The notes under the pieces were generated by a model that did not search any database, was not told the origin of the DNA, and saw only the letters and a list, made by a program, of their open reading frames with translations. From a virus, in IMG/VR virus record IMGVR_UViG_3300010375_000005, positions 1 through 44,925 of that record: a DNA stretch of 44,925 nucleotides, one strand, 5' to 3'. A program made the position numbers and the translations under genes. This document shows, one piece after another, positions 3,169-44,925 of the stretch. Position 1 is the first letter of the stretch; each line of letters begins with the position of its first letter.

Positions 3169-3849
3169 TTATATTTTGCGAAGATTTTCGTTATATATTT
3201 TGATATTTTCTTGCAAGGTAATCGCGGCAGCTTGCAATATCGCTACCCATTCAGCAACAGGTTTGCAGTTTGGTTTTGCTTTTGTGCCCATGTCAACAAT
3301 ACTCTCCCGTGTCAGGCAGCGAACAAATAAGGGGTGTTCGCATTCAGGCCTGTATGAGCCGAAATAGCATTTTTCGAGCAGCGGGTTAACGGTAAACGCG
3401 TGCAAACACTGATCGATATTATCATCAGGGATAATGCCCCCGTATAGCGTTGCGGCGTGTTTGCTCTTATCAGGACATTTAATCTCGCAGGATATGGTTA
3501 GATCAGCCGTAACCCCATCAGGCGAAATTCCTAAAATAGGGATAACCGTAGATTGCAGCCAGCCAACGGGCAATAATTCAACCCCGATATATTTTGACAT
3601 TTCGGCACGGGCTTGCGGTTCAAGGTCCTTACCGCGTTGCATGTCTGCGTTTACATATCCTTCATCCTCAACGTAGAATGGTTCCAAGTGGCATGAGCCA
3701 ATGTGATTGATTAACGTTTCGGGCTTGCCTAACAGGCTTTTAGCAAGAACGCCGCCTACTTTGCCCCAACGGATTTGGTGCCATGCCTCTGACCCCTGCT
3801 CGATTTCGAAATGGGCGATTACGCCGGGGAATGTTTGTTGTGTTTTCAT
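3169..3849 (-). CDS. YqaJ-type (lambda Exo-like) recombination exonuclease
   Basis: GSEAWHQIRWGKVGG is the N-terminal YqaJ motif. ISPDG...CEIKCP is a PD-(D/E)xK core. Confidence 0.75.
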   Translation of the reverse strand: MKTQQTFPGVIAHFEIEQGSEAWHQIRWGKVGGVLAKSLLGKPETLINHIGSCHLEPFYVEDEGYVNADMQRGKDLEPQARAEMSKYIGVELLPVGWLQSTVIPILGISPDGVTADLTISCEIKCPDKSKHAATLYGGIIPDDNIDQCLHAFTVNPLLEKCYFGSYRPECEHPLFVRCLTRESIVDMGTKAKPNCKPVAEWVAILQAAAITLQENIKIYNENLRKI

Positions 3850-3977
3850 TGTTTAGTTTAAAAAAGTGTATGTTTTTGTTTGGTCTATAAATGTTACGAT
3901 ATATTTATATTTAATCCAGTTAAGATAATTGTTTTTATGCCCGTGAGACCAATGAATTAATGGGTGGGCCGAAACGA

Positions 3978-4514
3978 TCACTTCAATTCCCCTTTCAATT
4001 TATCAACCGCAGCTAAAACGGTTGGCAGTTTCTTTTCATCCGCAGATAATGAGGCCCAAACGACATTTAATGCGTCTTTTGTCTTTTCACATGCGTTCAG
4101 CTTCGCCAATGCAGACGTATCGGTTACCGCAGCCGGTGGGTAGTATTTTTTAAACCGGGCAACATAATCAAACCTGGTGTCCGGCATTGCCCAAAGTATT
4201 ACAGGAATGTTTAACCATTTCTCCATGTATGGACTGCCGGTTTCCTTTGCTAAGAATTTAGCGTTGGTGTTATTGAGTATGACGGGTTTGTAAATTGCCT
4301 TTCCGGATGGATATTCTTTTAAAAACAAGCCGGTCTTAATTGTTTTTTTGTTTTGGTTCTGGTCGTAAGTTTCCTTATCCTCAAAATGCGAAATAGTAAC
4401 AAGCATTTCCGGGCGCAAACCATGACCTAATGATTCGCCGAATTTTAAATCCTCGCCACTTATATAGCGGGGATCGAGGTTCTTTTTAAAGTGGGTTAGT
4501 GTTTCTGTTGCCAT
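3978..4514 (-). CDS. Hypothetical protein (178 aa). Its position suggests a recombination partner (SSAP or SSB) of the exonuclease.
   Basis: Sits next to the YqaJ exonuclease; no motif recognised. Confidence 0.6.
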   Translation of the reverse strand: MATETLTHFKKNLDPRYISGEDLKFGESLGHGLRPEMLVTISHFEDKETYDQNQNKKTIKTGLFLKEYPSGKAIYKPVILNNTNAKFLAKETGSPYMEKWLNIPVILWAMPDTRFDYVARFKKYYPPAAVTDTSALAKLNACEKTKDALNVVWASLSADEKKLPTVLAAVDKLKGELK

Positions 4515-4663
4515 TATTGTAGTTTTTTACTTTCCTCTTTGATGTAAGAAAGGATGTGAGAAATTTTGTTTAGAACTTGGGTGCTAATTACCTGACATTC
4601 GAGACTGGTAAAATCGGGAATTTCGAGATTTTTAAGCGAAAGGTACAAGTTTGTGGTTTTTGC

Positions 4664-4693
4664 TTTGCCATTATAATTTCGTGCTTAAATTTG
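4664..4693 (+). promoter_or_regulatory. Bacteroidota-type promoter, TTTG-18nt-TAAATTTG, with no annotated gene downstream
   Basis: TTTG at 4664-4667 and TAAATTTG at 4686-4693, inside a 286-bp non-coding gap between minus-strand genes. Confidence 0.5.
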
Positions 4694-4745
4694 TTTTCCT
4701 TATTTTATCCAACTCCTTATGAAGTTGCTTTACCCACTTGTTAAA

Positions 4746-4783
4746 GTCATTCCCGCTATATCCGGCGGGAATGACTGTTTTTT
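4746..4783 (+). terminator. Intrinsic terminator (11-bp stem plus T6)
   Basis: gtcattcccgc (4746-4756), loop tatatccg, gcgggaatgac (4765-4775), then tgtttttt. Confidence 0.7.
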
Positions 4784-4801
4784 GAGTTGATCGGCGTAAG
4801 T

Positions 4802-4999
4802 TTATAATTGACGCGTTGTATCAAGACCTAATTCTTTAAGTTGAGGCTCGAAAAATATTTTAAAAGCATTAAAATCAATTGCTTTAGCCAAATTATAACC
4901 GTCAAGTTTTGGGTTACCTCCGAATATAGGCTCATATTCCCTACCAAAACTATTGTACATATTACGAAGCTGATGTTCATTTATCTCAAATGTTTTCAT
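4802..4999 (-). CDS. Hypothetical protein (65 aa)
   Basis: ORF directly downstream of the 5003..5170 ORF. Confidence 0.55.
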   Translation of the reverse strand: MKTFEINEHQLRNMYNSFGREYEPIFGGNPKLDGYNLAKAIDFNAFKIFFEPQLKELGLDTTRQL

Positions 5000-5002
5000 C
5001 TT

Positions 5003-5170
5003 TTAGTCCTCCCAGTTAAACCAACTTTCCAAATATTCATCCTCATTGTCAATGAAGCCGCGATTATGGTTTTGAAAATCATCAATCTGTGATAATTCAA
5101 AGGGTGTCACATCAAGAACCGATTTAGATTCTGACTGAGTGGGTAATTTGATTTCTTTTTTCATTTTCAT
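5003..5170 (-). CDS. Hypothetical acidic protein (55 aa). It is below the track cutoff.
   Basis: Own translation: MKMKKEIKLPTQSESKSVLDVTPFELSQIDDFQNHNRGFIDNEDEYLESWFNWED*. It is the first gene after the consensus promoter at 5184-5214. Confidence 0.5.
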   Translation of the reverse strand: MKMKKEIKLPTQSESKSVLDVTPFELSQIDDFQNHNRGFIDNEDEYLESWFNWED

Positions 5171-5183
5171 TTGATTTGGTATG

Positions 5184-5214
5184 CAAATATACAGATAGGT
5201 TTTGAATTTGCAAA
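5184..5214 (-). promoter_or_regulatory. Consensus Bacteroidota promoter, TTTG-19nt-TATATTTG (minus strand)
   Basis: On the + strand, caaatata at 5184-5191 and caaa at 5211-5214. The leader to the ATG at 5170 is 13 nt. Confidence 0.7.
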
Positions 5215-5260
5215 TTTATTTTAGTAAATTTTTAATAATTTAATTATTTTAATTTAGTTC

Positions 5261-5290
5261 TTGCTTTATTAAATATTAGTTGTAGATTTG
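5261..5290 (+). promoter_or_regulatory. Promoter, TTGC-18nt-TAGATTTG, divergent from the promoter at 5184-5214
   Basis: TAGATTTG at 5283-5290, 5 nt before the ATG at 5296. Confidence 0.55.
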
Positions 5291-5295
5291 TGGCT

Positions 5296-5499
5296 ATGAA
5301 AGCGGTAATAGAAGAAATAGATTTGCATTCAATCAAACGAAGCGATGCTTTTGAGTTGCGAAATGAAATATTAAAGGCAACCAATAATAGCCTTTATTTC
5401 AACAATGATTATCCGAGATTAAAAGAATTGTATGAATTATTGACCGGGTGTTTTGAAAATTCTGTCAACGGTGTTCATACAGTTAGCAGACGAAATTAA
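5296..5499 (+). CDS. Hypothetical protein (67 aa)
   Basis: ATG at 5296 (MKAVIEEIDL...). The track's GTG at 5290 lies inside the -7 box. Confidence 0.55.
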   Translation: MKAVIEEIDLHSIKRSDAFELRNEILKATNNSLYFNNDYPRLKELYELLTGCFENSVNGVHTVSRRN

Positions 5500-5500
5500 T

Positions 5501-5698
5501 ATGGCAAAAGTAAAATTACGCAAGGGCACAAAATACCCGTTTAAGCATTTGGTAAAAATTGGTGAAAGTTTTACCATTACTGGTGCCGTTAAAAAAAATG
5601 TAACAGCTGCATACGCTATGTTTAAGGCCAAAAACAATATCGAATGCACTATTACCGAGTTTGAAAATAACACAATAACTGTACTTAGAACCGCATGA
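5501..5698 (+). CDS. Hypothetical basic protein (65 aa)
   Basis: ATG at 5501 (MAKVKLRKGTKYPF...), immediately after the upstream stop. Confidence 0.55.
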   Translation: MAKVKLRKGTKYPFKHLVKIGESFTITGAVKKNVTAAYAMFKAKNNIECTITEFENNTITVLRTA

Positions 5699-12749: not shown

Positions 12750-12780
12750 TTTGTTATTGTGATTATTTGTAGTATATTTA
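12750..12780 (+). promoter_or_regulatory. Cassette promoter family, copy 1 (TTTG-19nt-TATATTTA)
   Basis: The 31 bp at 12749-12779 (ATTTGTTATTGTGATTATTTGTAGTATATTT) are identical to the copies at 16235 and 20497. Confidence 0.7.
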
Positions 12781-12793
12781 CATCAGATAATCA

Positions 12794-12985
12794 ATGAAGG
12801 TTATCGTAAAAAGCTTGACGGCAATGAAAAATAAAATCTTAACACCAGTTAAAATTCACAAGTATAAAGATTATACTATTCGGGTTACAAAAAGCGGCTT
12901 GTATAAAATTCACACAGTTAGTGGCTATCTGTTATTTACAAGAACAACATTAAAAGATGTTAAAGCAAGCATCGATTTGATATAA
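12794..12985 (+). CDS. Hypothetical basic protein (63 aa)
   Basis: First ORF after the promoter copy. Confidence 0.5.
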   Translation: MKVIVKSLTAMKNKILTPVKIHKYKDYTIRVTKSGLYKIHTVSGYLLFTRTTLKDVKASIDLI

Positions 12986-16232: not shown

Positions 16233-16293
16233 AAATTTGTTATTGTGATTATTTGTAGTATATTTGTATTGTCAATCAAGGCAAATTAAAAAA
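16233..16293 (+). promoter_or_regulatory. Cassette promoter plus conserved leader, copy 2 (61 bp identical to 20495-20555)
   Basis: TTTG at 16236-16239, 19-nt spacer, TATATTTG at 16259-16266, then the leader TATTGTCAATCAAGGCAAATTAAAAAA. Confidence 0.8.
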
Positions 16294-16303
16294 ACGTTAG
16301 AAA

Positions 16304-16591
16304 ATGGCAACTTTAAGAAAAACACAGGAAGGTTACAATATGGTAATCATGAATGCTACAGAACGCAAGGCATTCGACAAAATAATGAGTGCTAAATTAT
16401 ATGACGAAAACACTCCATTTTTTACCCCATGTGATAATCTTAAATTCTTTTATATTAAAGAAGTTGAGGTTGATTATATGAATCGGGAAACCACCATCAT
16501 CGCAAATGGTAAAACAGTGTTGGTAAAACACACATTCATGAATTCCAATACTAAAATAGATAAGGCGGTGCGTAAAGCATACGGGAATTAA
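16304..16591 (+). CDS. Hypothetical cassette cargo protein (95 aa)
   Basis: ORF lying exactly between the conserved 5' and 3' blocks. Confidence 0.6.
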   Translation: MATLRKTQEGYNMVIMNATERKAFDKIMSAKLYDENTPFFTPCDNLKFFYIKEVEVDYMNRETTIIANGKTVLVKHTFMNSNTKIDKAVRKAYGN

Positions 16592-16659
16592 AAGCACTCT
16601 GATTTGCCTTGATAACGTTTTCAGCGTATTAGCGCAATTCGAAAGGATTGCGCTTTTTT
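16591..16659 (+). terminator. Conserved 3' trailer block plus intrinsic terminator
   Basis: AAAGCACTCTGATTTGCCTTGATAA (16591-16615) is identical to 21255-21279. Hairpin gcgcaat/attgcgc (16632-16653) is followed by T6. Confidence 0.75.
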
Positions 16660-16724
16660 AAATAAAAAAGGTCTACATTTCTGCAAACCTTTCCTTATCT
16701 TTATTGCGCAAACAATTTAAAGAC

Positions 16725-18068
16725 ATGGTAAAGGTAAAAAACAATCCTCAATTGCGCAATAGTACGCCGTTTAAATTAGGCACATTCTGCTCCGGAATAG
16801 GTAGCCCCGAACAATCACTAAAAGAACTTAACGCTAATCATATCAATGTTTTCGCATGTGAAAAAGACAAATTCGCACGTCAAACATATTTAGCAAATTT
16901 TACACCCGGAATAATGTTAGAGGATATGACTAAGGAAACTTACGATGATCCTGAATTATACGCTGATTTAGTCGTTGCGGGTATCCCGTGCCAGTCGTTC
17001 AGTTTGGCAGGAAAACGGCAAGGTGAAAACGATCCGCGTGGATTGTTAATTTATGATTTTATCAGATATGTTCGAAAACGCAGGCCAAAGGTGTTTATCA
17101 TTGAGAATGTAAAAGGATTGCTTAGTGATGCAGGTGGGGTTACTTTTGGCAAATGGCTTGAATTATTAGGGTGTTCACGAAATGGGCAACCGAATATGTT
17201 TAACCATCCTGAATCGTTGGGTTATAATTTGAATTACAGGGTACTGAACGCAAAACATTACGGGTTGCCACAAAATAGGGAGCGTGTTTTTATTGTTGGT
17301 ATTAGGCCTGATTTGCCTAATAGTTACGTTTGGCCTAAACGGGTAGTTTTGAAAGATAGGTTGATTGATTTGTTGGAAAGTGAAGTTGATGAGAAGTATT
17401 ATTTGAGTGATTTAATGATGAGCAAATTCTCAGAATGCGGTACGTTTATAAATCAAGATATACAATCAAGTCGAGTGCATGACATTTTCGGATGTGTACC
17501 CGCTAATATAGCGGGTACACATGGGTATTCTATGGGATATATAAAATCGGTGGCTTTTAACGGCAATCAAAAAAAGAAAATACATACAGAAAATGATATT
17601 GCGTCCTGTTTAAATATTGGGAGCAATGCAAGCGGTTCATATAATAATTTGACACTCTTGCATGGTGCAAAATTTGAAGCGAACCGCATATACGATAGTA
17701 ACGGAATTGCCAAAACTCAAAAATCAAATGGTGGTGGTGGTGGGACTAAAACGGGGTATTATAGTGTTAAACAACTCAACCAATCAAAAGAATCCGGATG
17801 TAAACAACCATATCAGCAAAACCGTGTTTATGATAGTAATGGATTATCAACCGCCATAGATCAGGTAGCGGGTAGGTGGGGAACGAATATTCACCGCATA
17901 CGCCGACTAACCCCACTCGAATGCATGCGCCTAATGGGCTATCCTGATAGTTTTATCAAACCATGCAGCGAAACGCAAACCTACAAACAAGCCGGAAACT
18001 CCATCCCTATCCACATGATGAAAGTAGTATTAAAGCCATTATTGCCACTATTAGAAAACACGCATTGA
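16725..18068 (+). CDS. DNA (cytosine-5)-methyltransferase
   Basis: FCSGIGSPEQ (motif I), GIPCQSFSLAGKRQG (IV), ENVKGL (VI), QNRERVFIVG (VIII), RRLTPLECMRLMGYP (IX) and GNSI (X). ATG at 16725 is preferred over the track's TTG at 16704. Confidence 0.9.
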   Translation: MVKVKNNPQLRNSTPFKLGTFCSGIGSPEQSLKELNANHINVFACEKDKFARQTYLANFTPGIMLEDMTKETYDDPELYADLVVAGIPCQSFSLAGKRQGENDPRGLLIYDFIRYVRKRRPKVFIIENVKGLLSDAGGVTFGKWLELLGCSRNGQPNMFNHPESLGYNLNYRVLNAKHYGLPQNRERVFIVGIRPDLPNSYVWPKRVVLKDRLIDLLESEVDEKYYLSDLMMSKFSECGTFINQDIQSSRVHDIFGCVPANIAGTHGYSMGYIKSVAFNGNQKKKIHTENDIASCLNIGSNASGSYNNLTLLHGAKFEANRIYDSNGIAKTQKSNGGGGGTKTGYYSVKQLNQSKESGCKQPYQQNRVYDSNGLSTAIDQVAGRWGTNIHRIRRLTPLECMRLMGYPDSFIKPCSETQTYKQAGNSIPIHMMKVVLKPLLPLLENTH

Positions 18069-20494: not shown

Positions 20495-20555
20495 AAATTT
20501 GTTATTGTGATTATTTGTAGTATATTTGTATTGTCAATCAAGGCAAATTAAAAAA
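20495..20555 (+). promoter_or_regulatory. Cassette promoter plus conserved leader, copy 3
   Basis: TTTG at 20498-20501, TATATTTG at 20521-20528. The 61 bp are identical to 16233-16293. Confidence 0.8.
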
Positions 20556-26502: not shown

Positions 26503-26532
26503 TTTGATATTGTGATTATTTGTGTAGATTTG
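26503..26532 (+). promoter_or_regulatory. Cassette promoter family, copy 4 (TTTG-18nt-TAGATTTG)
   Basis: The spacer ATATTGTGATTATTTGTG shares ATTGTGATTATTTGT with copies 1-3. The -7 box ends 3 nt before the ATG at 26536. Confidence 0.7.
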
Positions 26533-32220: not shown

Positions 32221-33050
32221 GTTAATTTTAATTGTAAATTAAATAATGCTTCAAACAACTCCTTGTTGTTCTGCTGTTTTTGAGTGCTTAATGGCGGCTC
32301 ATTTTTACCAGTGCTGGATTGCGGCTGATAGTTTTTTACGTATAATGTCGGTGTGAGTGGATTACTCGCAAACACAACCGCGCTACCTTCTCTTTTTTTA
32401 GCTTCACGTACACACCAAACATAGCCAGCTTCTTCAGCTATTTCCGGGTTAATACATTGAGCAAGCATTTCATTAAAAAAGTCCATTTCTTTTTTTGAAC
32501 TTTCGTCATAATATGCAATATCAAAATCAACATACATCATTCCGATTGAATGCTGATCCACCTCACCGCTTGTGTACTTATCGAACATAAGCGGCTGTTT
32601 ATTTTTATCAATAGTGAAGATGTTGCAATTGGCTTGCATGGCAAAATCAATATCAACACCAATATCTTTAAAGTTCATGCTTTGATTAATATTCTTAGCC
32701 TTATTAGCTAAAACACTCTCAAACTTATTTTCGTGTTGCTTAAGTACGGGGTTATATGGATTGTCCTTAACTGTCTTGTTCCATATACCTTGTAAATGCA
32801 AGTCCATATGGCTGTCAATCACATTGGTAGTGTTGATAATCGCCTTAACCTCAATTATATCACCCGTAACAGGCTCAATCGTTGGCTTGAACTCTTTTAT
32901 AAGTTCAGATTTAACCGTACATGACGAATCCGTCTTGTACTCAGTTGCCTTAATTGCGGTTAATTCCTTGATTTTTTTCTTGATATAGTTGGTTTGATCC
33001 ATCTTATCAGTGAATTTTTTATCAGGGAATTGTTTTAGGGTATAGATCAT
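32217..33050 (-). CDS. Prohead maturation protease candidate (HK97/S78-like)
   Basis: VIDSHMDLHLQGIWNKTV...VLKQHENK resembles the D-x-x-D...H pattern. Lies between portal and capsid genes. Confidence 0.55.
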   Translation of the reverse strand: MIYTLKQFPDKKFTDKMDQTNYIKKKIKELTAIKATEYKTDSSCTVKSELIKEFKPTIEPVTGDIIEVKAIINTTNVIDSHMDLHLQGIWNKTVKDNPYNPVLKQHENKFESVLANKAKNINQSMNFKDIGVDIDFAMQANCNIFTIDKNKQPLMFDKYTSGEVDQHSIGMMYVDFDIAYYDESSKKEMDFFNEMLAQCINPEIAEEAGYVWCVREAKKREGSAVVFASNPLTPTLYVKNYQPQSSTGKNEPPLSTQKQQNNKELFEALFNLQLKLT

Positions 33051-33051
33051 T

Positions 33052-33357
33052 TCACAACGCGGTTATTGTTTTATCAATATTCGGCTCGGTTCCTAAACTT
33101 AGGTAAAGCAAGCTATTTTCTGGATGTGTATTGAAACAAATACCTGGATATAAGCCACTGCAATTTTCAAAAACATCAATATTGCATACTATTGCGCCAT
33201 TTAAGTAGCGTGGCCGTGCAGTTCCAATTATATTTTCAATTTTGTAATCTTTTGCTATGGGTATAGAAACTGGAAGGTTTAAATTAAGTTCATTTTTTTC
33301 GACTATAACATTTGTATACGAAAAAACTTCTTTTAATGGTTTGCCGTTGATGTTCAT
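33052..33357 (-). CDS. Hypothetical protein (101 aa)
   Basis: ORF only. Confidence 0.5.
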   Translation of the reverse strand: MNINGKPLKEVFSYTNVIVEKNELNLNLPVSIPIAKDYKIENIIGTARPRYLNGAIVCNIDVFENCSGLYPGICFNTHPENSLLYLSLGTEPNIDKTITAL

Positions 33358-33411
33358 TTCTTTACTTCTTTATCTTTTAACCGTTCTTTAACTTGTTGAG
33401 TTAACTTGGGA

Positions 33412-34698
33412 TTATTCACTTTTTCCGCCGCCTGTTTTAGACGTTCCGGCTTGGACTGGGACTGCGTTGATTGTTGCATAATCTAAATGTGTAAATTCGG
33501 TATCTAAGGTAGAATTAATTTCGTCAATTTTCACACCTGCTTTCATAAAATTTATTAATGCCTGTGATAAGAACAATTGCCCCTGCGCTTTTAGCTTAGC
33601 TGAAGCTTGTGTAAATGGCAGGTGATCCCATGAGATTACTATACTTTTTGTTGAATATCCGAAGCGTTTAGTAAACGCGTTCATTAATTGATCTCCGGCT
33701 GGCTGCAATGTGTAATCAACATGCGCGCCCCTGGCAATTTCCTGATTTTCATATGTTGAGCCTTTTAATGACGCCTCTAACACGTCGCGCGGGATGCCGA
33801 ATAATGAACCGACTTTGAAATAATCATCCCAATATGACTTGTCAAGATCTTCTATAACCGCCGATTGCTCCACAAAACGTTTAATATCAATCATTGATTT
33901 AACGGCATGAACACTTTTTGTGCCGTTCATCTTAGTTTCAATGTCTTTTTTTTCATCTTCATGTAACGGCGATTGTAGTATATTATTCGGGTCAGCTTTA
34001 CCAGCGACCATATATTTACCGGCGAACCGTAATGTTATATTCTTACTACCGGCACCGGCCCGTCCGTTAGCTATAATTTGGTAAATAGCATCTATTGTTG
34101 ACGATCCCCTAAACCAATTTCCGGTTCCGTTACTCAAATCAGGCACGTGCGTTATCCTACCCCATTTTATTTGTTGACTGTCGCCTCCTGAATACCTGTA
34201 ATTAATTATTAACTCATTGATTAACTTCTCTGTAGCTGATGATAAAACAATCATATCCCTGTACTTATTCATTTCGGCCGGGAATACCATTTTATAGCTA
34301 TCGAGCATATAAAGTTTATTGGTTGTGCTTTGGGCGCTGTCGCTATCAACGTAGCAATAGGCATTGCCAATCATCTTCCAAAACATATAGTCCCAAAGGA
34401 ATTGACTTTTTTGCTGAAATGGGTTTGGGTTATTAATTAATGTTATAAATGGGTCGTTTGGTACTATTTTACCATTCCTGTAAACATAAACTTCTCCCAT
34501 GCTGAACATATCGCATTGAAGCTTGAATACCTTAAGGACAGCTGGATTAGAGAATACTGCCGCTACTTTTAATCGATCATTTGAAAAGTTAGTAAAGTCA
34601 GCATTAGGGTCGAGCATAAACATGTCGTTTGGCCCCCACTGTTCGATATAATCGTTAAGCCCGAAAATTGATGCTGCAATACTTTGAAACCAATTCAT
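33412..34698 (-). CDS. Portal protein
   Basis: 428 aa, positioned between terL and the protease/capsid genes. Confidence 0.7.
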   Translation of the reverse strand: MNWFQSIAASIFGLNDYIEQWGPNDMFMLDPNADFTNFSNDRLKVAAVFSNPAVLKVFKLQCDMFSMGEVYVYRNGKIVPNDPFITLINNPNPFQQKSQFLWDYMFWKMIGNAYCYVDSDSAQSTTNKLYMLDSYKMVFPAEMNKYRDMIVLSSATEKLINELIINYRYSGGDSQQIKWGRITHVPDLSNGTGNWFRGSSTIDAIYQIIANGRAGAGSKNITLRFAGKYMVAGKADPNNILQSPLHEDEKKDIETKMNGTKSVHAVKSMIDIKRFVEQSAVIEDLDKSYWDDYFKVGSLFGIPRDVLEASLKGSTYENQEIARGAHVDYTLQPAGDQLMNAFTKRFGYSTKSIVISWDHLPFTQASAKLKAQGQLFLSQALINFMKAGVKIDEINSTLDTEFTHLDYATINAVPVQAGTSKTGGGKSE

Positions 34699-34734
34699 GT
34701 ATTATGTTTCGGTAAATGTAAATTAAATTATTGT

Positions 34735-34765
34735 AAAAAAGAAAAAGCCAGTCAAATTGACTGGC
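34735..34765 (-). terminator. Intrinsic terminator after the Imm-5-like gene
   Basis: gccagtca (34747-34754) pairs with tgactggc (34758-34765). On the minus strand it is followed by TTTTTCTTTTTT. Confidence 0.7.
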
Positions 34766-34794
34766 TGATCCAAAGTATAGAACTTTTCAGGAAA

Positions 34795-35322
34795 CTATAC
34801 AGTTTCTTTTTTAGTGGTGAAATCTTTTAAAAATTGCAGTAGTAATTCTTGGTATTTCGCTTTACCGTTTGTTTTTTTAGCGTCGGCGGCGGCGGCTTCG
34901 GCGGCGGCGTAGGCGGCGTAGGCGGCGTAGGCGGCTTCGGCGGCTTCGGCGGCGGCTTCGGCGGCGGCGGCTTCGTAGGCGGCGGCGGTTTCCCTTTTTT
35001 CTCTCAATACATCAATAGTAATTATACCTGCCAAATAGTCTTTAGCTGCCTGTATTGCTTCTCTTGGTGCTTTATTGTTGGGGTATTTATCTTCATAAAT
35101 AGGCAACACACATAATGCACAACCTATAGCGAATTGGCGAAATTCATCTACGGTAAATTCGCAATTATATCTAATAAACCAGGCTTTGTGTTTTAAAGAT
35201 ACGTTTGCTGATAAAATATCAGTAATTGTAAATTCATCATTAGGTAGATAATCATTTTGCCGATTATTGTTTTCGGCATAACATCCAAAATTAGAAGTGT
35301 TTTTTGTGAATTCTGTTTTCAT
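34795..35322 (-). CDS. Imm-5-like helical protein with a C-terminal alanine-rich repeat
   Basis: CALCVLPIYEDKYPNNKAPREAIQAAKDYL is followed by AAAYEAAAAEAAAEAAEAAYAAYAAYAAAEAAAADA. This pattern is recalled from the Imm-5/Imm-5-like putative immunity proteins. Confidence 0.55.
   Translation of the reverse strand: MKTEFTKNTSNFGCYAENNNRQNDYLPNDEFTITDILSANVSLKHKAWFIRYNCEFTVDEFRQFAIGCALCVLPIYEDKYPNNKAPREAIQAAKDYLAGIITIDVLREKRETAAAYEAAAAEAAAEAAEAAYAAYAAYAAAEAAAADAKKTNGKAKYQELLLQFLKDFTTKKETV
34881..34988. repeat. GC-rich triplet/9-bp tandem repeat tract
   Basis: ggcggcgta x3 (34903-34929), then ggcggcttc units. An almost pure (GCN)n island in an AT-rich genome. Confidence 0.9.
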
Positions 35323-35358
35323 TTTGAAAAGTTTTTAAGTCCGAATTATTTCAGTCTA

Positions 35359-35389
35359 CTAATATACTACATTTAATCACATTTGCAAA
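35359..35389 (-). promoter_or_regulatory. Cassette promoter family, copy 5 (minus strand; TTTG-19nt-TATATTAG)
   Basis: The minus strand reads TTTG CAAATGTGATTAAATGTAG TATATTAG. The spacer matches the + strand family at 14 of 19 positions. It abuts the terL stop. Confidence 0.6.
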
Positions 35390-36661
35390 TTAAATATTCT
35401 TAATAATCCCATCTTTAAACATCTGACTAACACCGTACGCAATGCCGTCAATAAGGTGATTATCCTGGTCTACCGGCGTTTCGAGCAGTACACCGTTTTT
35501 ATCCTTGTCATAAGCGTATGTTTCCTGCTCAAATTCGATGTTTGGCGAACGATCAGTATAGCAAATGTTTAATCCCGATAGTAATCCAATCCGGTTAATC
35601 AAATCCATTTTTGCGCCAACAGCAACCGCATATTCCCATCCGGCATTACGCAGGCTGAGTATTTTTGTGGGCCTGTTATTATCGCAGCTGATAACCTGGT
35701 TATATCCAATGCCGAATGATTTAAACTTCCATGCAACTAGTCCTTCCTCGTCATATCCACGTACGGCGTGTAATTGTTGTTCGCTTAATTCACGCTCAAT
35801 CTCATTTTCAGATTTGTAATTTTTTTCATCGACATATAGGGTACCGTCATCATATTTTAAACCAACTACTCCCCACGGATCGACCTTTCCCCAGTCGTTT
35901 CCAATATATTCAACTTTATTGAGTGATGTGTATTTTTCTGTTGGTACTTTAATCCAGCTGTAGATGCGGCCTTCGACTTGGCCGGGTATACCGAGTCCGT
36001 AGACTTGCCATTTGTTTGCCCAATATTGATTTATTATTATTAATTCACCTTTTTCGTTTACAGCGAAATTTCCAGTGGTATTATCAAATTTATATCCGTT
36101 TTTCTTGTACAGTAATATTTCATTTAGTTCTGAAATATCCAAATACTCATTATCTAAAAATGTTAGTTTTAAGAATTGGCAATCGTCACGCGGTATTACA
36201 TGTTGATGTGCCCAAAATTTCTTATTTGGGTTAAAGTCAATAATGACACGCTTGGCCCGGCTGGTCAGTTCCCTATAAGTATCAAATTTTACTTTGTTTG
36301 CCTCATTAACAAACATTACATCTGAACGCAATCCTTTGCCGATGTCTTCTTTGTCGAGACCTATAAAGCGTATGAAGCTGCCATTTTTGAATTTATATAG
36401 AACGTCATTAGTCCATCTATTACGGTTAAAAATACCGTAAGCTGTCATTACTTTTAAAAAATCTTTAATTACGGTTATCTTCATTTTAGATAACTCGTCA
36501 CTTGCTATGAATATTTCTTTATTTGCGTTTGATGATGCGAAGTCAACTAATAGCATTAGTATGGCAAAGGTCTTGCCGGCTCCCTGGCCTCCCTGTACAC
36601 ACCATATACGTTTTCTAAGCGCCGATATTTTCCTGAGTGCTGTCGTCGGCTGCAATATCAT
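35390..36661 (-). CDS. terL: Terminase large subunit
   Basis: VQGGQGAGKTFAILML is a Walker A motif. 423 aa, lying after terS. Confidence 0.85.
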   Translation of the reverse strand: MILQPTTALRKISALRKRIWCVQGGQGAGKTFAILMLLVDFASSNANKEIFIASDELSKMKITVIKDFLKVMTAYGIFNRNRWTNDVLYKFKNGSFIRFIGLDKEDIGKGLRSDVMFVNEANKVKFDTYRELTSRAKRVIIDFNPNKKFWAHQHVIPRDDCQFLKLTFLDNEYLDISELNEILLYKKNGYKFDNTTGNFAVNEKGELIIINQYWANKWQVYGLGIPGQVEGRIYSWIKVPTEKYTSLNKVEYIGNDWGKVDPWGVVGLKYDDGTLYVDEKNYKSENEIERELSEQQLHAVRGYDEEGLVAWKFKSFGIGYNQVISCDNNRPTKILSLRNAGWEYAVAVGAKMDLINRIGLLSGLNICYTDRSPNIEFEQETYAYDKDKNGVLLETPVDQDNHLIDGIAYGVSQMFKDGIIKNI

Positions 36662-37043
36662 CTGATAGTGGGTTATTTGTCAATAATTTTACAGGGGTAA
36701 CGTCATCAACCTCCATACGTTCAACATATCCGCGTTTTTTGCCTTTTGTTTTAAGATAGAATATGATTGCGGTGTCGGATGGCGGTTGATCGTAAACAAC
36801 CGGTTCGCCTTTTTGGTTATACACTTGAACGCTAACTCCATCTATCTTTTCAAATAATTTACTCTCAACAAAATCGATAGCGTTTTCCTGTATATCTTCT
36901 GCGGCTTGTCTGAACTCTTCATCATTTTTATACCAATTATAATATGTCTGTCTTGACATGTTATTCATTGATGCACAGGCAGTTGAGATAATTCCCCTTG
37001 AATTATCAAGAATTTCAAGAAATTTCTTTTTTATACTGTCCAT
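36615..37043 (-). CDS. terS: Terminase small subunit
   Basis: 142 aa with an N-terminal HTH-like segment (GIISTACASMNNMSRQTYYNWYKND). Directly upstream of terL and overlapping it. Confidence 0.6.
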   Translation of the reverse strand: MDSIKKKFLEILDNSRGIISTACASMNNMSRQTYYNWYKNDEEFRQAAEDIQENAIDFVESKLFEKIDGVSVQVYNQKGEPVVYDQPPSDTAIIFYLKTKGKKRGYVERMEVDDVTPVKLLTNNPLSDDIAADDSTQENIGA

Positions 37044-37052
37044 TCTGTAAAT

Positions 37053-37508
37053 CTATGTCTTTTTTACCAACTTATCAAACCCATCCAACGCTTTTTCAAT
37101 ATCGGCCTCATTTGGTTGGTTAAAACCGATGATTTGCCAAAAGGTAAACTCATTTAAACAAATGTAATAGTTATGTCTTAAATCAATACATAAGCGTTGC
37201 CATTCAAGTTGAGATTTACTTACATTATATTTTCCGAACTTAAATTCGATAAATAACACTTCGCCGCCAGGATTAAGCCAATACATATCGCTCGCACCTG
37301 GTACCTGTCCAAATCCTGATGTATTTGCCCGCAGTGAGTTGTTATACACACATACGAGGCGCTTCCAGTCGTTAGGATAGAAGAAATAAAGCATCTCAGC
37401 ACATTTTGATTGTAGTTGTTGCTCTGACTTTGGGATGCGGTTGAGTAGTGATTTGAGGTATTGGCGGTTTTGTTCTCGGCGTTGGTGGGGGGTTAGGTGT
37501 GTTTTCAT
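37053..37508 (-). CDS. VRR-NUC domain nuclease
   Basis: GASDMYWLNPGGEVLFIEFKFGKYNVSKSQLEWQ fits the D...ExK...Q..W pattern. Confidence 0.65.
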   Translation of the reverse strand: MKTHLTPHQRREQNRQYLKSLLNRIPKSEQQLQSKCAEMLYFFYPNDWKRLVCVYNNSLRANTSGFGQVPGASDMYWLNPGGEVLFIEFKFGKYNVSKSQLEWQRLCIDLRHNYYICLNEFTFWQIIGFNQPNEADIEKALDGFDKLVKKT

Positions 37509-43173: not shown

Positions 43174-44925
43174 TTAGTATTGTCCAGTTTCAAACAAAGA
43201 TCCCTGCCTTTTAGTTAGGGCCGCGTTATTGCAATTTTTAACAGCCTCGTTAAAGTACGAATCTTTCAATTCGCATCCAATAGCAAAACGTCCGTTATTA
43301 ATCGATACATACGCCTCGCTGCCAGTACCTAAGAATGGTGTTAAAACAGTATCGCCCGGATTGCTAAACATTTGCATAGGCCTATGAATTACTTCAAGTT
43401 GGAGGTTTGCAATATGCTTTTCATCGCCCATATCAGTACCCGCCTTACCATTAAGTACATCGGTACGTTTTATATCCATCCATACGGGACTGGCCCACTT
43501 TTGCCATAAGTTGAGCGGAATGTTTTGTTTTGTCAAGTGGTTAACAGGCTCCCAGTTACTTTCATCGCTACCGTCCCACTTTTTGAAGTAACGCATATAT
43601 TCAGCCATACCGTAACCGGAAAGAACGGAATTTGAGGTTAGCGTTTTATATAAAAGTCGTTGGGTTTTTGTACGTTGCATCTCCAGTACAGGATCACACC
43701 AGATCGTTGTTTTGCTGTGTAGCTTAAAACCTGTGCGTTCGTTTGTTTTCAGAATTAAATCAAGTTCAGCAAGTCTTGAATTGACCGTAATTGAAATCAA
43801 AATCTCATTAAGGGCCTCAATTTTAGCCAATAATAAATCACGGCGGTCTGATAATTCCATTATTTCATCTACTTGAAAAATCTCAAATTCTAACTCGTTT
43901 ATTCGCTTTTTTATCTGATTGTAAAGAGGAATTTCTGCAATTAGTTTTTCGCGCTCTTTAATATAATCAACGACGAGGCAATTCTGAATGAACATCGTAT
44001 GTTCATCAGTAAAGTTATCCATTCCTGTAAACCCGGATGAATTTTTATAAACCCCCAAGTCCTTAGTGTGGCATGCCATAATGCGGCCCGGCTTAAGAAC
44101 GCGGTAACACTCTTTAATGATAAATTTATACTGTTCCCAAAATGCCGCGTCATCGTCGTTATTACCCAAGTCGTGTATATAATTTGAGTAGGTAAACAAT
44201 GACTTGAACGGTGGAGAGAAAATAATAAAATCAACTGAATTATCAGCCAATCGTTTTAACTCAATGGCGCTATCTCCTTTCATTAGCCACATGTGCGGTG
44301 TTTTTACCTCTTTAAAATCGTAAGTGTCTAAAAGTCCGTATGTTTTGCCGTTGATGGCTTTCGATACTTCGCGGATAGATTCGTTGTGTTGTTGTTCTTT
44401 CATTTTAATATTTTGGAGTACGTTTTGCATGGTATCGGTAGTCATTAGCCAACAGTTAACTGTGTGCAGCTGGCCGAAGCGAAGGAAACGGCGAATAGCC
44501 TGGTATAGTGCCTCAAAGCTGAAATTAAACGAGGCGAATATAGTATTATGGCAATGTTGCCAGTTTAGGCCATATTGAGCAAGTTTTGTTTTGGTTATTA
44601 ACACGCGGATTTTACCATGTGAAAAATCGGCAAATCCCTGCCGTTTAATATCCTTTTTATCAGATCCTGTTACATTAACGCTTCCGGGAATTAATTTCAA
44701 CAATTCCTCCGCTTCGCTATTAAGTGTAACCCAAATGCAAAACGTTTCGGTTGAATTATTAACAATTTCGGCAACTTCGGCCAATCTTTCAACTTTGGTT
44801 AACTTCAATTCCCGGCTGAATGATGTTGCATCGACCGCAACGTCATTAAACATCTTTCCCGGCCTGGATGCTGTTTTTATTTGCCTTTCAATGTAATTTA
44901 ATGGCGGCAAATCATATCCCGGTTC
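43174..44925 (-). CDS. Helicase-methyltransferase fusion, C-terminal part: helicase C-domain plus a beta-class N6/N4 amino-methyltransferase. The ORF continues upstream at 846..1, and 44803-44925 duplicates 1-123.
   Basis: QAIRRFLRFGQ (helicase motif VI). DFIIFSPPF (catalytic motif IV) precedes TPFLGTGSE (AdoMet motif I). A coiled-coil insert KREKLIAEIPLYNQIKKRINELEFEIFQVDEIMEL lies between them. Confidence 0.8.
   Translation of the reverse strand, partial: EPGYDLPPLNYIERQIKTASRPGKMFNDVAVDATSFSRELKLTKVERLAEVAEIVNNSTETFCIWVTLNSEAEELLKLIPGSVNVTGSDKKDIKRQGFADFSHGKIRVLITKTKLAQYGLNWQHCHNTIFASFNFSFEALYQAIRRFLRFGQLHTVNCWLMTTDTMQNVLQNIKMKEQQHNESIREVSKAINGKTYGLLDTYDFKEVKTPHMWLMKGDSAIELKRLADNSVDFIIFSPPFKSLFTYSNYIHDLGNNDDDAAFWEQYKFIIKECYRVLKPGRIMACHTKDLGVYKNSSGFTGMDNFTDEHTMFIQNCLVVDYIKEREKLIAEIPLYNQIKKRINELEFEIFQVDEIMELSDRRDLLLAKIEALNEILISITVNSRLAELDLILKTNERTGFKLHSKTTIWCDPVLEMQRTKTQRLLYKTLTSNSVLSGYGMAEYMRYFKKWDGSDESNWEPVNHLTKQNIPLNLWQKWASPVWMDIKRTDVLNGKAGTDMGDEKHIANLQLEVIHRPMQMFSNPGDTVLTPFLGTGSEAYVSINNGRFAIGCELKDSYFNEAVKNCNNAALTKRQGSLFETGQY
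44803..44925. repeat. Terminal direct duplication (copy 2), identical to 1..123
   Basis: Same 123-nt string as the window start. Confidence 0.95.

Follow-up and report, generated by a model that had tools for sequence, protein, structure and literature searches.

The window analyzed here is the whole 44,925-nt stretch of viral DNA. Its minus strand encodes a 175-amino-acid (aa) open reading frame (ORF) at positions 34795 to 35322, between terL (35390 to 36661; matches to Terminase_3 and phrog_2) and the portal gene (33412 to 34698; Phage_portal, 61 bits). The ORF shares its strand with the structural operon, and its translation contains both of the strings quoted in an earlier note on this DNA, CVLPIYEDKYPNNKAPREAIQAAKDYL and AAYAAYAAYAAAEAAA. 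For the same rhizosphere sample, Logan offers an independent contig in which positions 34400 to 35700 recur with zero differences. The phage genome (~44.8 kb) carries a 123-nt terminal repeat and therefore looks complete; no integrase was found in it, and the phage is apparently integrase-less. Its predicted host type is Bacteroidota (Flavobacteriia-like). The sole match in a DNA search was to Olleya phage Harreka_1, in the portal gene only (6%).

Judged from its sequence, the locus is a ~655-bp mobile accessory (“moron”) cassette with a promoter, a single gene, and a terminator. A promoter-like 31-nt motif of the Bacteroidota sigma-A type, TTTGCAAATGTGATTAAATGTAGTATATTAG (35359 to 35389, minus strand), begins one base past the terL stop and consists of a -33 TTTG, a 19-nt spacer, and a -7 element, TATATTAG. 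The motif matches the Bacteroidetes -33/-7 promoter consensus (TTTG/TANNTTTG; PMC6847099) except for an A at the near-invariant T-6 of the -7 element. Four copies with at most one mismatch each occur in the window (12750+, 16236+, 20498+, and 35359-), compared to 0 in dinucleotide-preserving shuffles of the window, which agrees with the earlier proposal that the gene has its own putative promoter, one of a family, abutting the terL stop. The gene is probably expressed from this motif. Another copy precedes a C5 DNA methylase cassette (16236 to 18068), a hint that the two cassettes may be coregulated.

The 5′ untranslated region (UTR; 35323 to 35358, minus strand) contains a small hairpin (CTGAA-ataa-TTCGG) and an A-rich leader with no Shine-Dalgarno sequence and an A at -3; absence of the Shine-Dalgarno sequence and an A-3 Kozak-like context are described for Bacteroidetes (PMC6847099). 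The hairpin covaries in two related loci (CCGAA/TTCGG in L007 and CTGA/TCAG in L019), a comparison of three sequences only. At the other end, the 3′ UTR and intrinsic terminator (34735 to 34794, minus strand) comprise a small hairpin spanning the stop codon and then the terminator itself (34766 to 34746), which has a 9-bp stem with 5 G-C pairs, a 3-nt loop, and a T-run, TTTTTCTTTTT. Its RNA fold was predicted at -20.7 kcal/mol (z = -4.2 versus shuffles), bearing out the claim of a strong terminator of the gene's own ahead of the portal gene. No Rfam families were found in positions 33000 to 37500, and the base composition of the cassette is unremarkable apart from a GC-rich repeat within the gene.

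The cassette had been described as an autonomous insertion in a normally tight junction, and a survey of related loci that contain both genes supports that description: in 51 of 71, the gap between terL and the portal gene was ≤150 nt. The cassette is missing from the junction in 69 of the 71 related phages and is present there only in L019 and L007, where the promoter, 5′ UTR, and terminator are conserved and the 31-nt motif is kept upstream of the same gene. Ten loci hold other cargo at the junction (HNH-like genes, lipoproteins, or small ORFs), which marks it as an insertion hot spot. In L010, a relative with a 78% identical portal, the junction is empty and the sequence immediately upstream of the portal start is shared, placing the cassette boundary near 34732. 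The gene is mobile; the 3′ UTR and terminator are kept not only in L019 but also in L002, whose homologue lies at a different genomic position, between head-tail connector genes and on the opposite strand.

A profile search assigned the full 175-aa protein to Pfam Imm5_like (PF21805) with 36.5 bits (E = 5.1e-9). The score for Imm5 proper (PF14423), 24.1 bits (E = 4.5e-5), lay about 1 bit under the gathering threshold, which is 25 bits for both families. The Imm-5-like identity proposed earlier for the protein was thus upheld for Imm5_like, with Imm5 just below the cutoff. The Imm5_like match covers residues 62 to 141 and profile positions 12 to 87 of 129 (~60% of the profile); the unmatched remainder consists of Ala-rich helices, in place of which this protein has a variable array. 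We considered a low-complexity artifact behind the Pfam match and ruled it out, since residues 1 to 110, without the array, still scored 32.5 bits against Imm5_like and the repeat plus tail alone gave no Imm5 match. Against Imm5, the protein without the array scored 16.8 bits.

Among predicted viral structures (BFVD), the best match was [quoted passage not shown] A match to phrog_38757 (unknown function; E = 1.8e-10, residues 54 to 154) shows that relatives are already present in catalogued phage genomes, and a search of NCBIfam gave no match. The gene is an additional member of PF21805, a known, uncharacterized family. A full-text literature search returned nothing on PF21805, nothing on Imm5 in phages, and no experimental study of any Imm5 member; it yielded only the comparative genomics papers that define Imm5 (PMC3239186 and PMC3482391), so the earlier impression that no phage role had been described for such a protein still stands. 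Neither Imm5 nor Imm5_like has an experimentally proven function or a solved structure, and their immunity function is thus itself a prediction.

The conserved N-terminal domain (residues 1 to 110; 34993 to 35322, minus strand) includes the Imm5_like core (residues 62 to 108), with the motif CA..VLPIYE..YP...APR.AI. Near-invariant positions are G13, C14, Y15, D45, K46, W48, F49, I66, A69, V72, L73, I75, Y76, E77, Y80, P81, P86, and R87. The domain is under strong purifying selection, with dN/dS of 0.09 to 0.13 (about 0.1) and saturated dS. Conservation of R87, in the PR motif, is at least 90%, and a second conserved residue, D45, falls outside the Pfam match. The acidic residue that precedes (R/A)PR in the other phage Imm5-like clades inspected (L156, L130, and L167; e.g., YPDDNRPR and YPEDDRPR) is Asn in this clade (YPNNKAPR). 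A conserved C-terminal tail (residues ~148 to 175 plus the stop codon; 34795 to 34879, minus strand) contains the helix YQELLLQFLKDFT. The tail is common to homologues with very different arrays, and its residue L161 is at least 90% conserved.

Structure prediction, which the earlier note had suggested, was run with AF2 and gave a helical protein with no PDB counterpart. The model of the window protein had a pLDDT of 77.6, and that of a short-array homologue (P0013) had a pLDDT of 86.7; both are predicted to contain 7 to 9 helices and two 3-residue strands, consistent with the mostly alpha-helical character of Imm5. Values of pLDDT were ~85 to 93 in the N-terminal domain, ~92 in a tail helix (residues 154 to 170), and <50 at residues 122 to 137. 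A conserved globular part is made up of the first 110 residues, probably together with the short conserved helix of the C-terminal tail. The predicted helical fold matched no solved structure: a Foldseek search of the PDB with the two models returned nothing at E ≤ 0.001, Ocr/ArdA and other DNA mimics included, and no PDB sequence was matched in a profile search. A candidate zinc site (C14, C54, C68, and C71; CALC resembling CxxC) was rejected because the CxxC is missing from homologues P0051 and P0057. We also rejected a lipoprotein or secreted protein, there being no hydrophobic segment (maximum Kyte-Doolittle hydropathy of 1.1 in a 19-residue window); the protein is cytoplasmic.

Between the N-terminal domain and the tail lies a hypervariable Ala/Tyr/Glu array (residues ~111 to 147; 34880 to 34992, minus strand), a coding tandem repeat of GCC-based 9- to 15-nt units. 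Tandem Repeats Finder placed the DNA repeat at 34880 to 34988 with periods of 9, 12, and 15, and its GC content is 66%, versus 39% across the window. We rejected an antisense 88-aa Gly-rich ORF (34849 to 35115, plus strand) as a by-product of the GCC repeat. All 25 Ala codons of the array are GCC, with mixed Ala codons elsewhere, and the array of the L002 homologue uses GCT 60 times; one Ala codon throughout each array points to recent repeat expansion at the DNA level. Homologues have arrays of 12 to 119 aa, whose length correlates with that of the total protein (r = 0.93), and near-identical proteins can differ by array length only (e.g., P0012, with 210 aa, and P0023, with 181 aa). These patterns indicate that array length changes fast through slippage of a codon-homogeneous tandem repeat. 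Short-read assemblies break at the repeat (of the 33 closest IMG/VR contigs, 7 terminate within it), and array lengths in databases therefore need caution. For repeat-length heterogeneity in the source sample, our comparison covered assembled contigs only; unrelated GC-rich contigs pile onto the repeat. Codon-homogeneous repeats could arise by neutral slippage with no adaptive role, and any role that this one may have is one that we infer.

The family is large, with >300 proteins in a protein search and 163 IMG/VR loci, and nearly all homologues are on phage-like contigs. A tblastn search of 50,697 GenBank phage records with the N-terminal domain gave no match; the clade is thus known essentially from metagenomes alone. 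Homologues occupy many genomic positions, most of them in regions of early or replication genes or amid small ORFs; they lie beside VapE primase genes in two cases (L001 and L005) and in phages of 110 to 174 kb in two others (L003 and L004). Other phages mostly carry the gene not by itself but within operons of small early or accessory genes. Tandem arrays of paralogues occur, with three genes each in L150 and L166, and fusions occur as well.

No conserved neighbor emerged from 85 phage loci, where 450 neighbors formed 392 clusters, of which just one, that of Imm5-like paralogues, was large. Among 134 flanking proteins there was no toxin family, and no Pfam family had more than two members. 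A polymorphic toxin (DYW deaminase or CdiA-C) directly adjoins the gene neither here, where the neighbors are TerL and portal, nor in the homologues, and no enrichment of known anti-defense genes was found beside the phage homologues. Acb2/Tad1 occurs near the L003 homologue, a single instance. Bacterial genomes contributed only 4 metagenome-assembled genome (MAG) contigs (Bacteroidota, Flavobacteria, and one Paceibacterota bin), none with a toxin-locus context and one carrying a phage primase-helicase homologue. A protein search from a distant clade (the L156 core) for cellular toxin-linked relatives returned 23 short metagenomic contigs only.

We tentatively postulate that this gene encodes a phage accessory binder that would neutralize a toxin of the host or a competitor, or a defense effector, from within a moron cassette; this is the most likely function, at somewhat less than an even chance. 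The Imm5_like cassette was inserted into the normally tight terL-portal junction. In the manner predicted for cellular Imm5 scaffolds and their DYW-type deaminase and CdiA-C toxins, its product would bind and block a toxin domain whose gene lies at another place. The blocked toxin could be an abortive-infection or defense effector of the host or a polymorphic toxin injected by neighboring bacteria, and blocking it would spare the cell under infection, along with the phage nucleic acids, until lysis. The binding surface might be retuned or re-spaced as the repeat varies. We infer toxin binding by the phage protein by analogy. A broader proposal, which we regard as doubtful, is that phages of Bacteroidota and other phyla recruited an immunity scaffold of polymorphic-toxin systems as a solo, freely relocating counter-toxin or counter-defense gene, in which the array would act as a slippage-driven contingency region and a cheap alternative to a diversity-generating retroelement, making a protruding helical hairpin longer or shorter so as to match variable toxin or defense effectors.

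An alternative hypothesis, which we consider unlikely, is that activity resides in the acidic Ala/Tyr/Asp(Glu) helical array, which would serve as a nucleic acid mimic or decoy (Ocr/ArdA-like antirestriction or inhibition of a defense protein that binds DNA or RNA), with the conserved domain as a mere scaffold. The array has a net charge of -7 and zero Lys or Arg residues, and family-wide array composition is 62.5% A, 13.8% Y, and 11% D. DNA methylases are typical antirestriction genes, and one lies behind the same promoter motif; pentapeptide repeats are a known DNA-mimic fold, and in L151 they are fused to the Imm5_like domain. Many homologues, moreover, lie amid genes of replication and nucleic acid metabolism. 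However, the arrays of other phage Imm5-like clades (L156, L130, and L167) are Trp/Arg-rich and nonacidic, and the 12- to 119-aa range of array lengths is odd for a shape mimic. Acidic composition is all that the protein has in common with Ocr, ArdA, or other DNA mimics, to which PDB fold matches are absent, and conservation is strongest in the N-terminal domain rather than in the array.

It is quite unlikely, in our view, that the gene is a superinfection-exclusion or abortive-infection component that aids its carrier, be it cell or phage, against competing phages or mobile elements, as opposed to counter-defense. Exclusion or defense functions are common among morons that bring their own promoter and terminator, and the moron-like layout of the cassette, the solo and mobile state of the gene, and the variable cargo of the hot spot would all fit. 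An exclusion gene usually pays in the lysogenic state, but no such state is evident for a genome that looks complete and in which no integrase was found. Searches against PADLOC-DB defense models gave nothing significant (the best was LmuB, with 12.7 bits and E = 0.008, over the Ala-rich part), and the protein lacks an enzymatic or membrane domain. A housekeeping role internal to the phage, as an accessory factor in packaging or head assembly or as a regulator of a phage enzyme, is suggested by the terL-portal location on the strand of the structural operon; we judge it very unlikely given the absence of the cassette from this junction in nearly all relatives, the early or replication-associated setting of most homologues, the promoter and terminator of its own, and the lack of a structural PHROG annotation. 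Least probable of all is a selfish or hitch-hiking cassette with no phage function and a neutral microsatellite as its repeat, which would fit the patchy distribution, varying positions, and slippage-prone, codon-homogeneous repeat but is at odds with the strong purifying selection on the N-terminal domain, with >300 intact homologues that conserve their N- and C-terminal parts, and with arrays that stay in frame and are enriched in Tyr and Asp, an enrichment that, for Tyr, mutation of Ala codons alone would not produce.

If neutralization of a toxin or defense effector is the true function, polymorphic-toxin immunity scaffolds would join the phage counter-defense repertoire, linking phage fitness with interbacterial warfare (T6SS, CDI, and Rhs-type toxins). 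Because the family is large and nearly absent from cultured phages, a single functional assay could annotate many dark-matter phage genes. Otherwise, the gene would be an ordinary accessory gene at an insertion hot spot of a known kind.

With its promoter-like motif and intrinsic terminator set between usually adjacent genes, the cassette resembles the morons of lambdoid phages, and it is likewise patchy in its presence, at a site that holds other cargo in other relatives. Classic morons are known from temperate phages, whose prophages express them; in contrast, no integrase was found in this genome, and composition is unremarkable apart from the repeat. T4 Dmd is a phage-encoded antitoxin that inhibits RnlA and LsoA. 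The logic that we propose would be the same, with a small solo phage protein directly binding a host toxin and preventing abortive infection, although the two proteins have no sequence or fold relationship.

Like other members of PF21805, to which most of its best homologues are already assigned among the matches listed, the protein has the helical core CA..VLPI[YF]E..[YF]P...PR.AI followed by Ala-rich helices. It differs in an extra conserved N-terminal segment of ~60 aa in this clade (GCY and DKxWF), outside the profile match, in an Ala-rich part that is a length-hypervariable, microsatellite-like array, and in its phage cassette, where a toxin neighbor is absent. Imm5 (PF14423) is predicted to confer immunity to polymorphic toxins of the DYW-clade deaminase and CdiA-C types (Iyer 2011, PMC3239186; Zhang 2012, PMC3482391). 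Zhang et al. reported Imm5 with DYW deaminase toxins in Bacteroidetes, listed its conserved residues as “R, D,” and described polyimmunity loci and proteins (PMC3482391). The phage protein departs from Imm5 in its subthreshold score and in its phage carrier without an adjacent toxin gene; before the PR motif, it has Asn where the other phage Imm5-like proteins inspected have an acidic residue. It shares with Imm5 a mostly alpha fold, as predicted by the models, a conserved Arg (R87), occurrence in Bacteroidetes, and tandem multicopy loci and fusions. These phage tandem arrays and fusions parallel the polyimmunity loci and proteins of Imm5 (PMC3482391) and are typical of immunity families.

At its terL-portal junction, this phage carries a mobile accessory cassette, an anatomy that we regard as firmly established; the cassette encodes a conserved protein of the Imm5_like family that includes a helical, hypervariable array. 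The 175-aa open reading frame starts with ATG at 34795..35322 (-). Genes for TerS (36615..37043, -) and TerL (35390..36661, -; Terminase_3 39 bits, phrog_2 E = 6e-21) lie upstream of it, and the portal gene (33412..34698, -; Phage_portal 61 bits) lies downstream. An earlier note had described an autonomous Imm-5-like gene at this position, with its own promoter abutting the terL stop codon and its own strong terminator before the portal gene. The frame contains both peptide strings quoted there, and both putative signals were located at the coordinates given in that note. Immediately 3' of the terL stop codon is TTTGCAAATGTGATTAAATGTAGTATATTAG (35389-35359, -), a copy of a 31-nt motif that occurs four times in the window with at most one mismatch (12750+, 16236+, 20498+, and 35359-) and not once in dinucleotide-preserving shuffles. 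By consensus comparison, its architecture is that of the Bacteroidetes primary promoter, in which -33 TTTG is paired with a -7 element, TANNTTTG, refined to TAHHTTTG (PMC6847099, PMC9723704). Because A replaces the near-invariant T-6 in the predicted Imm5-like promoter (in two related phage loci, L019 and L007, the deviation is A at G-5), it may not be as strong as the copies at 16236 and 20498, both of which are perfect. The leader lacks a Shine-Dalgarno sequence, and an A occupies -3; both features are expected in Bacteroidetes (PMC6847099). The terminator (34766-34736, -), 3' of the stop codon, is a 9-bp hairpin (5 GC) with a 3-nt loop followed by a T-run, TTTTTCTTTTT, and the 3' region (71 nt) has a folding energy of -20.7 kcal/mol (z = -4.2).

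Window positions 34400-35700 were reproduced exactly by an independent Logan assembly of the same rhizosphere metagenome from which the window originated. The 5' untranslated region (UTR) also contains a small hairpin, CTGAA-ataa-TTCGG (35338-35354, -), which may be a 5' stabilizing stem; across just three sequences, the pairing persists with altered base pairs in L007 (CCGAA/TTCGG) and L019 (CTGA/TCAG). An 88-aa antisense Gly-rich frame (GGGGFGGGVGG...) at 34849-35115 (+) is unlikely to be a gene, being merely the complement of the GCC repeat.

The Imm5-like identity was borne out by profile searches. The protein matched Pfam Imm5_like (PF21805) with 36.5 bits (gathering threshold 25, E = 5e-9), and its score against Imm5 proper (PF14423), 24.1 bits, fell just below the threshold of 25. 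Since alanine repeats can draw spurious profile matches, the parts of the protein were rescanned separately. Residues 1 to 110 alone scored 32.5 bits against PF21805 (residues 62-108, profile positions 12-58), and the repeat plus tail gave no Imm5 match in the Pfam rescan; the assignment therefore depends on the core motif FAIGCALCVLPIYEDKYPNNKAPREAIQAAKDYL, which recurs in distant phage clades as CAEHVLPIYEQDYPDDNRPRHAIEVAR (L156) and CAEQVLPIFEKEYPEDDRPRKAIQAAK (L130). The protein also matched phrog_38757 (function not annotated, E = 2e-10), and NCBIfam and PADLOC scans returned nothing significant.

The earlier description of an insertion into a normally tight junction agrees with a survey of 80 IMG/VR loci with TerL relatives (33-88% identity), in 71 of which the portal gene was located. 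After correction for unaligned portal N termini, the terL-portal gap was 150 nt or less in 51/71 loci, 151-300 nt in 9, and >300 nt in 11. Among loci reaching the portal gene, the Imm5-like gene occupies this site only in L019 (TerL 88%, portal 83%); L007 (TerL 77%) also carries it 3' of terL on a contig that stops before the portal gene. The promoter motif and 5' UTR are conserved in both, as are the 3' UTR and terminator where the contig extends far enough. In L010, whose portal is 78% identical, the junction is empty and spans 58 nt. Immediately before the portal ATG, the window (34700-34732) and L010 (2040-2070) share the leader aattacatttaccgaaaca, with and without the cassette, which places the right boundary of the cassette near 34732. 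A TACATTTA box in this leader may be a portal-proximal promoter, which would be needed if the cassette terminator blocks read-through from terL. Other large gaps hold unrelated cargo, including HNH-like proteins (L033 and L058), predicted lipoproteins (L062), and small Zn-ribbon-like or unannotated frames (L012, L020, L048, L052, and L085). This makes the junction a hot spot for cargo, at which the Imm5-like cassette represents one alternative among several.

The two parts of the protein evolve differently. The N-domain (residues 1 to 110) is under strong purifying selection, with dN/dS of 0.09-0.13 against L019, L007, L001, and L005, at saturated dS. Residues conserved in at least 90% of 83 sequences are G13, C14, Y15, D45, K46, W48, F49, the VLPIYE..YP motif, P86, R87, and, in the C-terminal helix, L161. 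Array length ranges from 12 to 119 aa and tracks total protein length (r = 0.93), the proteins minus the array measuring 131 ± 9 aa. Two homologues, P0012 (210 aa) and P0023 (181 aa), are near-identical apart from the array, as are P0008, P0011, and P0022 (198, 232, and 241 aa). Each array uses a uniform alanine codon, which differs among homologues: GCC in the window (25 copies), L019 (31/33), and L005 (18), and GCT in L002 (60), L007 (36), L003 (35), and L004 (34). Alanines outside the array and in 14 large window frames have mixed codons (GCC = 20%). The array DNA is built of tandem units of 9-15 nt. The single alanine codon per array and the array-only length differences are the signature of recent, repeated DNA-level expansion of these units, not of an old conserved peptide. 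Family-wide, arrays consist of 62.5% A, 13.8% Y, and 11% D; unusually for a family whose arrays use Asp, the acidic residue in the window array (34880-34992, -) is Glu (GAA), which makes up just 0.4% of array residues overall. Among the 33 closest IMG/VR loci, 7 contigs end within the repeat and a few have frame-shifted read-through (broken or frame-shifted contigs: L093, L100, L103, L110, L113, L118, and L092), and one of the two source runs (X2) has a contig break in the repeat (window 34945-35020). Array lengths given in databases may be unreliable, and populations may be heterogeneous for the repeat.

AlphaFold2 modeled the protein from an 83-sequence alignment (pLDDT 77.6, pTM 0.73) with two 3-residue strands (4-6 and 30-32) and helices at 43-53, 58-79, 85-97, 103-123, 132-150, and 154-170. 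Confidence drops solely within the array (pLDDT <50 for residues 122-137) and recovers to high values in the C-terminal helix; P0013, a 145-aa homologue with a minimal array, gave an identical set of elements (pLDDT 86.7, pTM 0.79). Structure comparison of both models with the PDB found no match at E ≤ 0.001, and PDB sequences likewise gave none in a profile search. The sole significant match among BFVD predicted viral structures was an "Imm-5-like domain-containing protein" of an uncultured Caudovirales phage (E = 3.5e-4). The protein is probably cytoplasmic, given its pI of 5.2 and lack of a hydrophobic segment.

A protein search yielded 335 homologues at E ≤ 1e-3; among the 120 matches listed, most were already tagged PF21805, and contigs were often 30-170 kb. 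IMG/VR contained 163 confirmed relatives. Representative bacterial genomes contributed only four MAG contigs with a homologue (Bacteroidota, Flavobacteria, and one Paceibacterota bin), and no homologue was found in GenBank phages. By precomputed Pfam annotation, the inspected contexts were all phage-like and each different. The gene adjoins a VapE-type primase, upstream of a C5 methylase and an SNF2 helicase, in L001 and L005; lies between head-completion and connector genes, on the opposite strand, in L002; and sits amid dozens of small frames in 174-kb and 111-kb phage contigs (L003 and L004), in one of which an Acb2/Tad1-hairpin gene is ~4.5 kb away. At most loci, it is packed tightly among small genes in a same-strand operon; a promoter and terminator of its own occur in the window's lineage and a few others (L002 and L111). 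The gene and terminator appear to move as a unit because L002 shares a recognizably homologous 3' UTR and terminator at a different insertion site. Clustering of the neighbors at positions ±1 to ±3 (450 from 85 loci) produced 392 clusters, the sole large one consisting of Imm5-like paralogues. In a Pfam census of 134 immediate neighbors, toxin domains were absent and no family was represented more than twice; annotated neighbors were mostly replication or nucleic acid metabolism genes (PIF1, SSB, Prim-Pol, nucleases, and methylases). The gene is therefore solo, with any target necessarily encoded at another location.

The window begins and ends with the same 123 nt (1-123 and 44803-44925) and is therefore a complete circular or terminally redundant genome of ~44.8 kb. 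Its frames of ≥150 aa gave no integrase match; some are unannotated, and those with an annotation encode replication and recombination proteins (beta-clamp, YqaJ exonuclease, DUF5906 primase-helicase, SNF2 helicase, primase, and helicase/methyltransferase), an HNH endonuclease and a second nuclease, an endolysin, and structural proteins. Among cultured phages, the closest by DNA is Olleya phage Harreka_1, a weak match in the portal alone. The other promoter motif copies (12750-12780, 16236-16266, and 20498-20528, +) precede plus-strand cassettes within the minus-strand tail/structural module; the latter two are identical over ~60 nt, including the 5' UTR, with a perfect TATATTTG -7 box. A more loosely matching relative of the motif is at 26503-26532. 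Behind motif 16236, a 95-aa unannotated frame precedes a C-5 cytosine DNA methylase (16704-18068, +; Pfam 222 bits), likely an anti-restriction cassette, which may be coregulated with the Imm5-like gene. A 63-aa frame directly behind motif 12750 (12794-12985, +) has a weak PADLOC "2TM effector" match (E = 6e-5, 20.8 bits).

Imm5 was defined by comparative genomics alone, as a mostly alpha scaffold beside DYW-clade deaminase and CdiA-C toxins, including in Bacteroidetes, and was proposed to bind structurally diverse toxins (PMC3239186, PMC3482391). By analogy, we tentatively postulate, at somewhat less than an even chance, that the phage protein would bind a toxin of host or competitor origin, which would serve counter-defense or protect the infected cell. 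This reading fits best because the phage copy is solo, strongly conserved, freely relocating, and without a toxin partner. That the acidic array acts as a nucleic acid mimic or decoy seems unlikely, and exclusion of or defense against other phages or mobile elements is an improbable role. A part in packaging or assembly, as the position beside terL might suggest, is very doubtful: the gene is absent from this site in 69/71 relatives, and homologues occupy early regions elsewhere. A nonfunctional hitchhiker is most improbable, being contradicted by the N-domain dN/dS. The rest of the probability belongs to functions other than toxin binding and these four alternatives.

The window gene joins a known family, whose phage proteins already bear the label "Imm-5-like domain-containing" in databases and whose relatives are grouped in a PHROG. 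A literature search found no paper describing the size of the phage clade, its solo, mobile nature, phage-borne tandem paralogue arrays, or the codon-homogeneous hypervariable array. We consider the cassette a well-defined, testable candidate, not yet a surprise. Tandem paralogues occur in L150 (three copies, 3842-5669), L166 (three, 3845-5645), and L116 (two, 457-1615), and the domain is fused to pentapeptide repeats in a 1557-aa protein (L151, 125-4798), a HAD phosphatase (L167, 5304-6581), and DUF7666 (L156, 3605-4489). These phage paralogues and fusions resemble the polyimmunity loci and proteins of polymorphic toxin systems, which have been described for Imm5 and similar families (PMC3482391).
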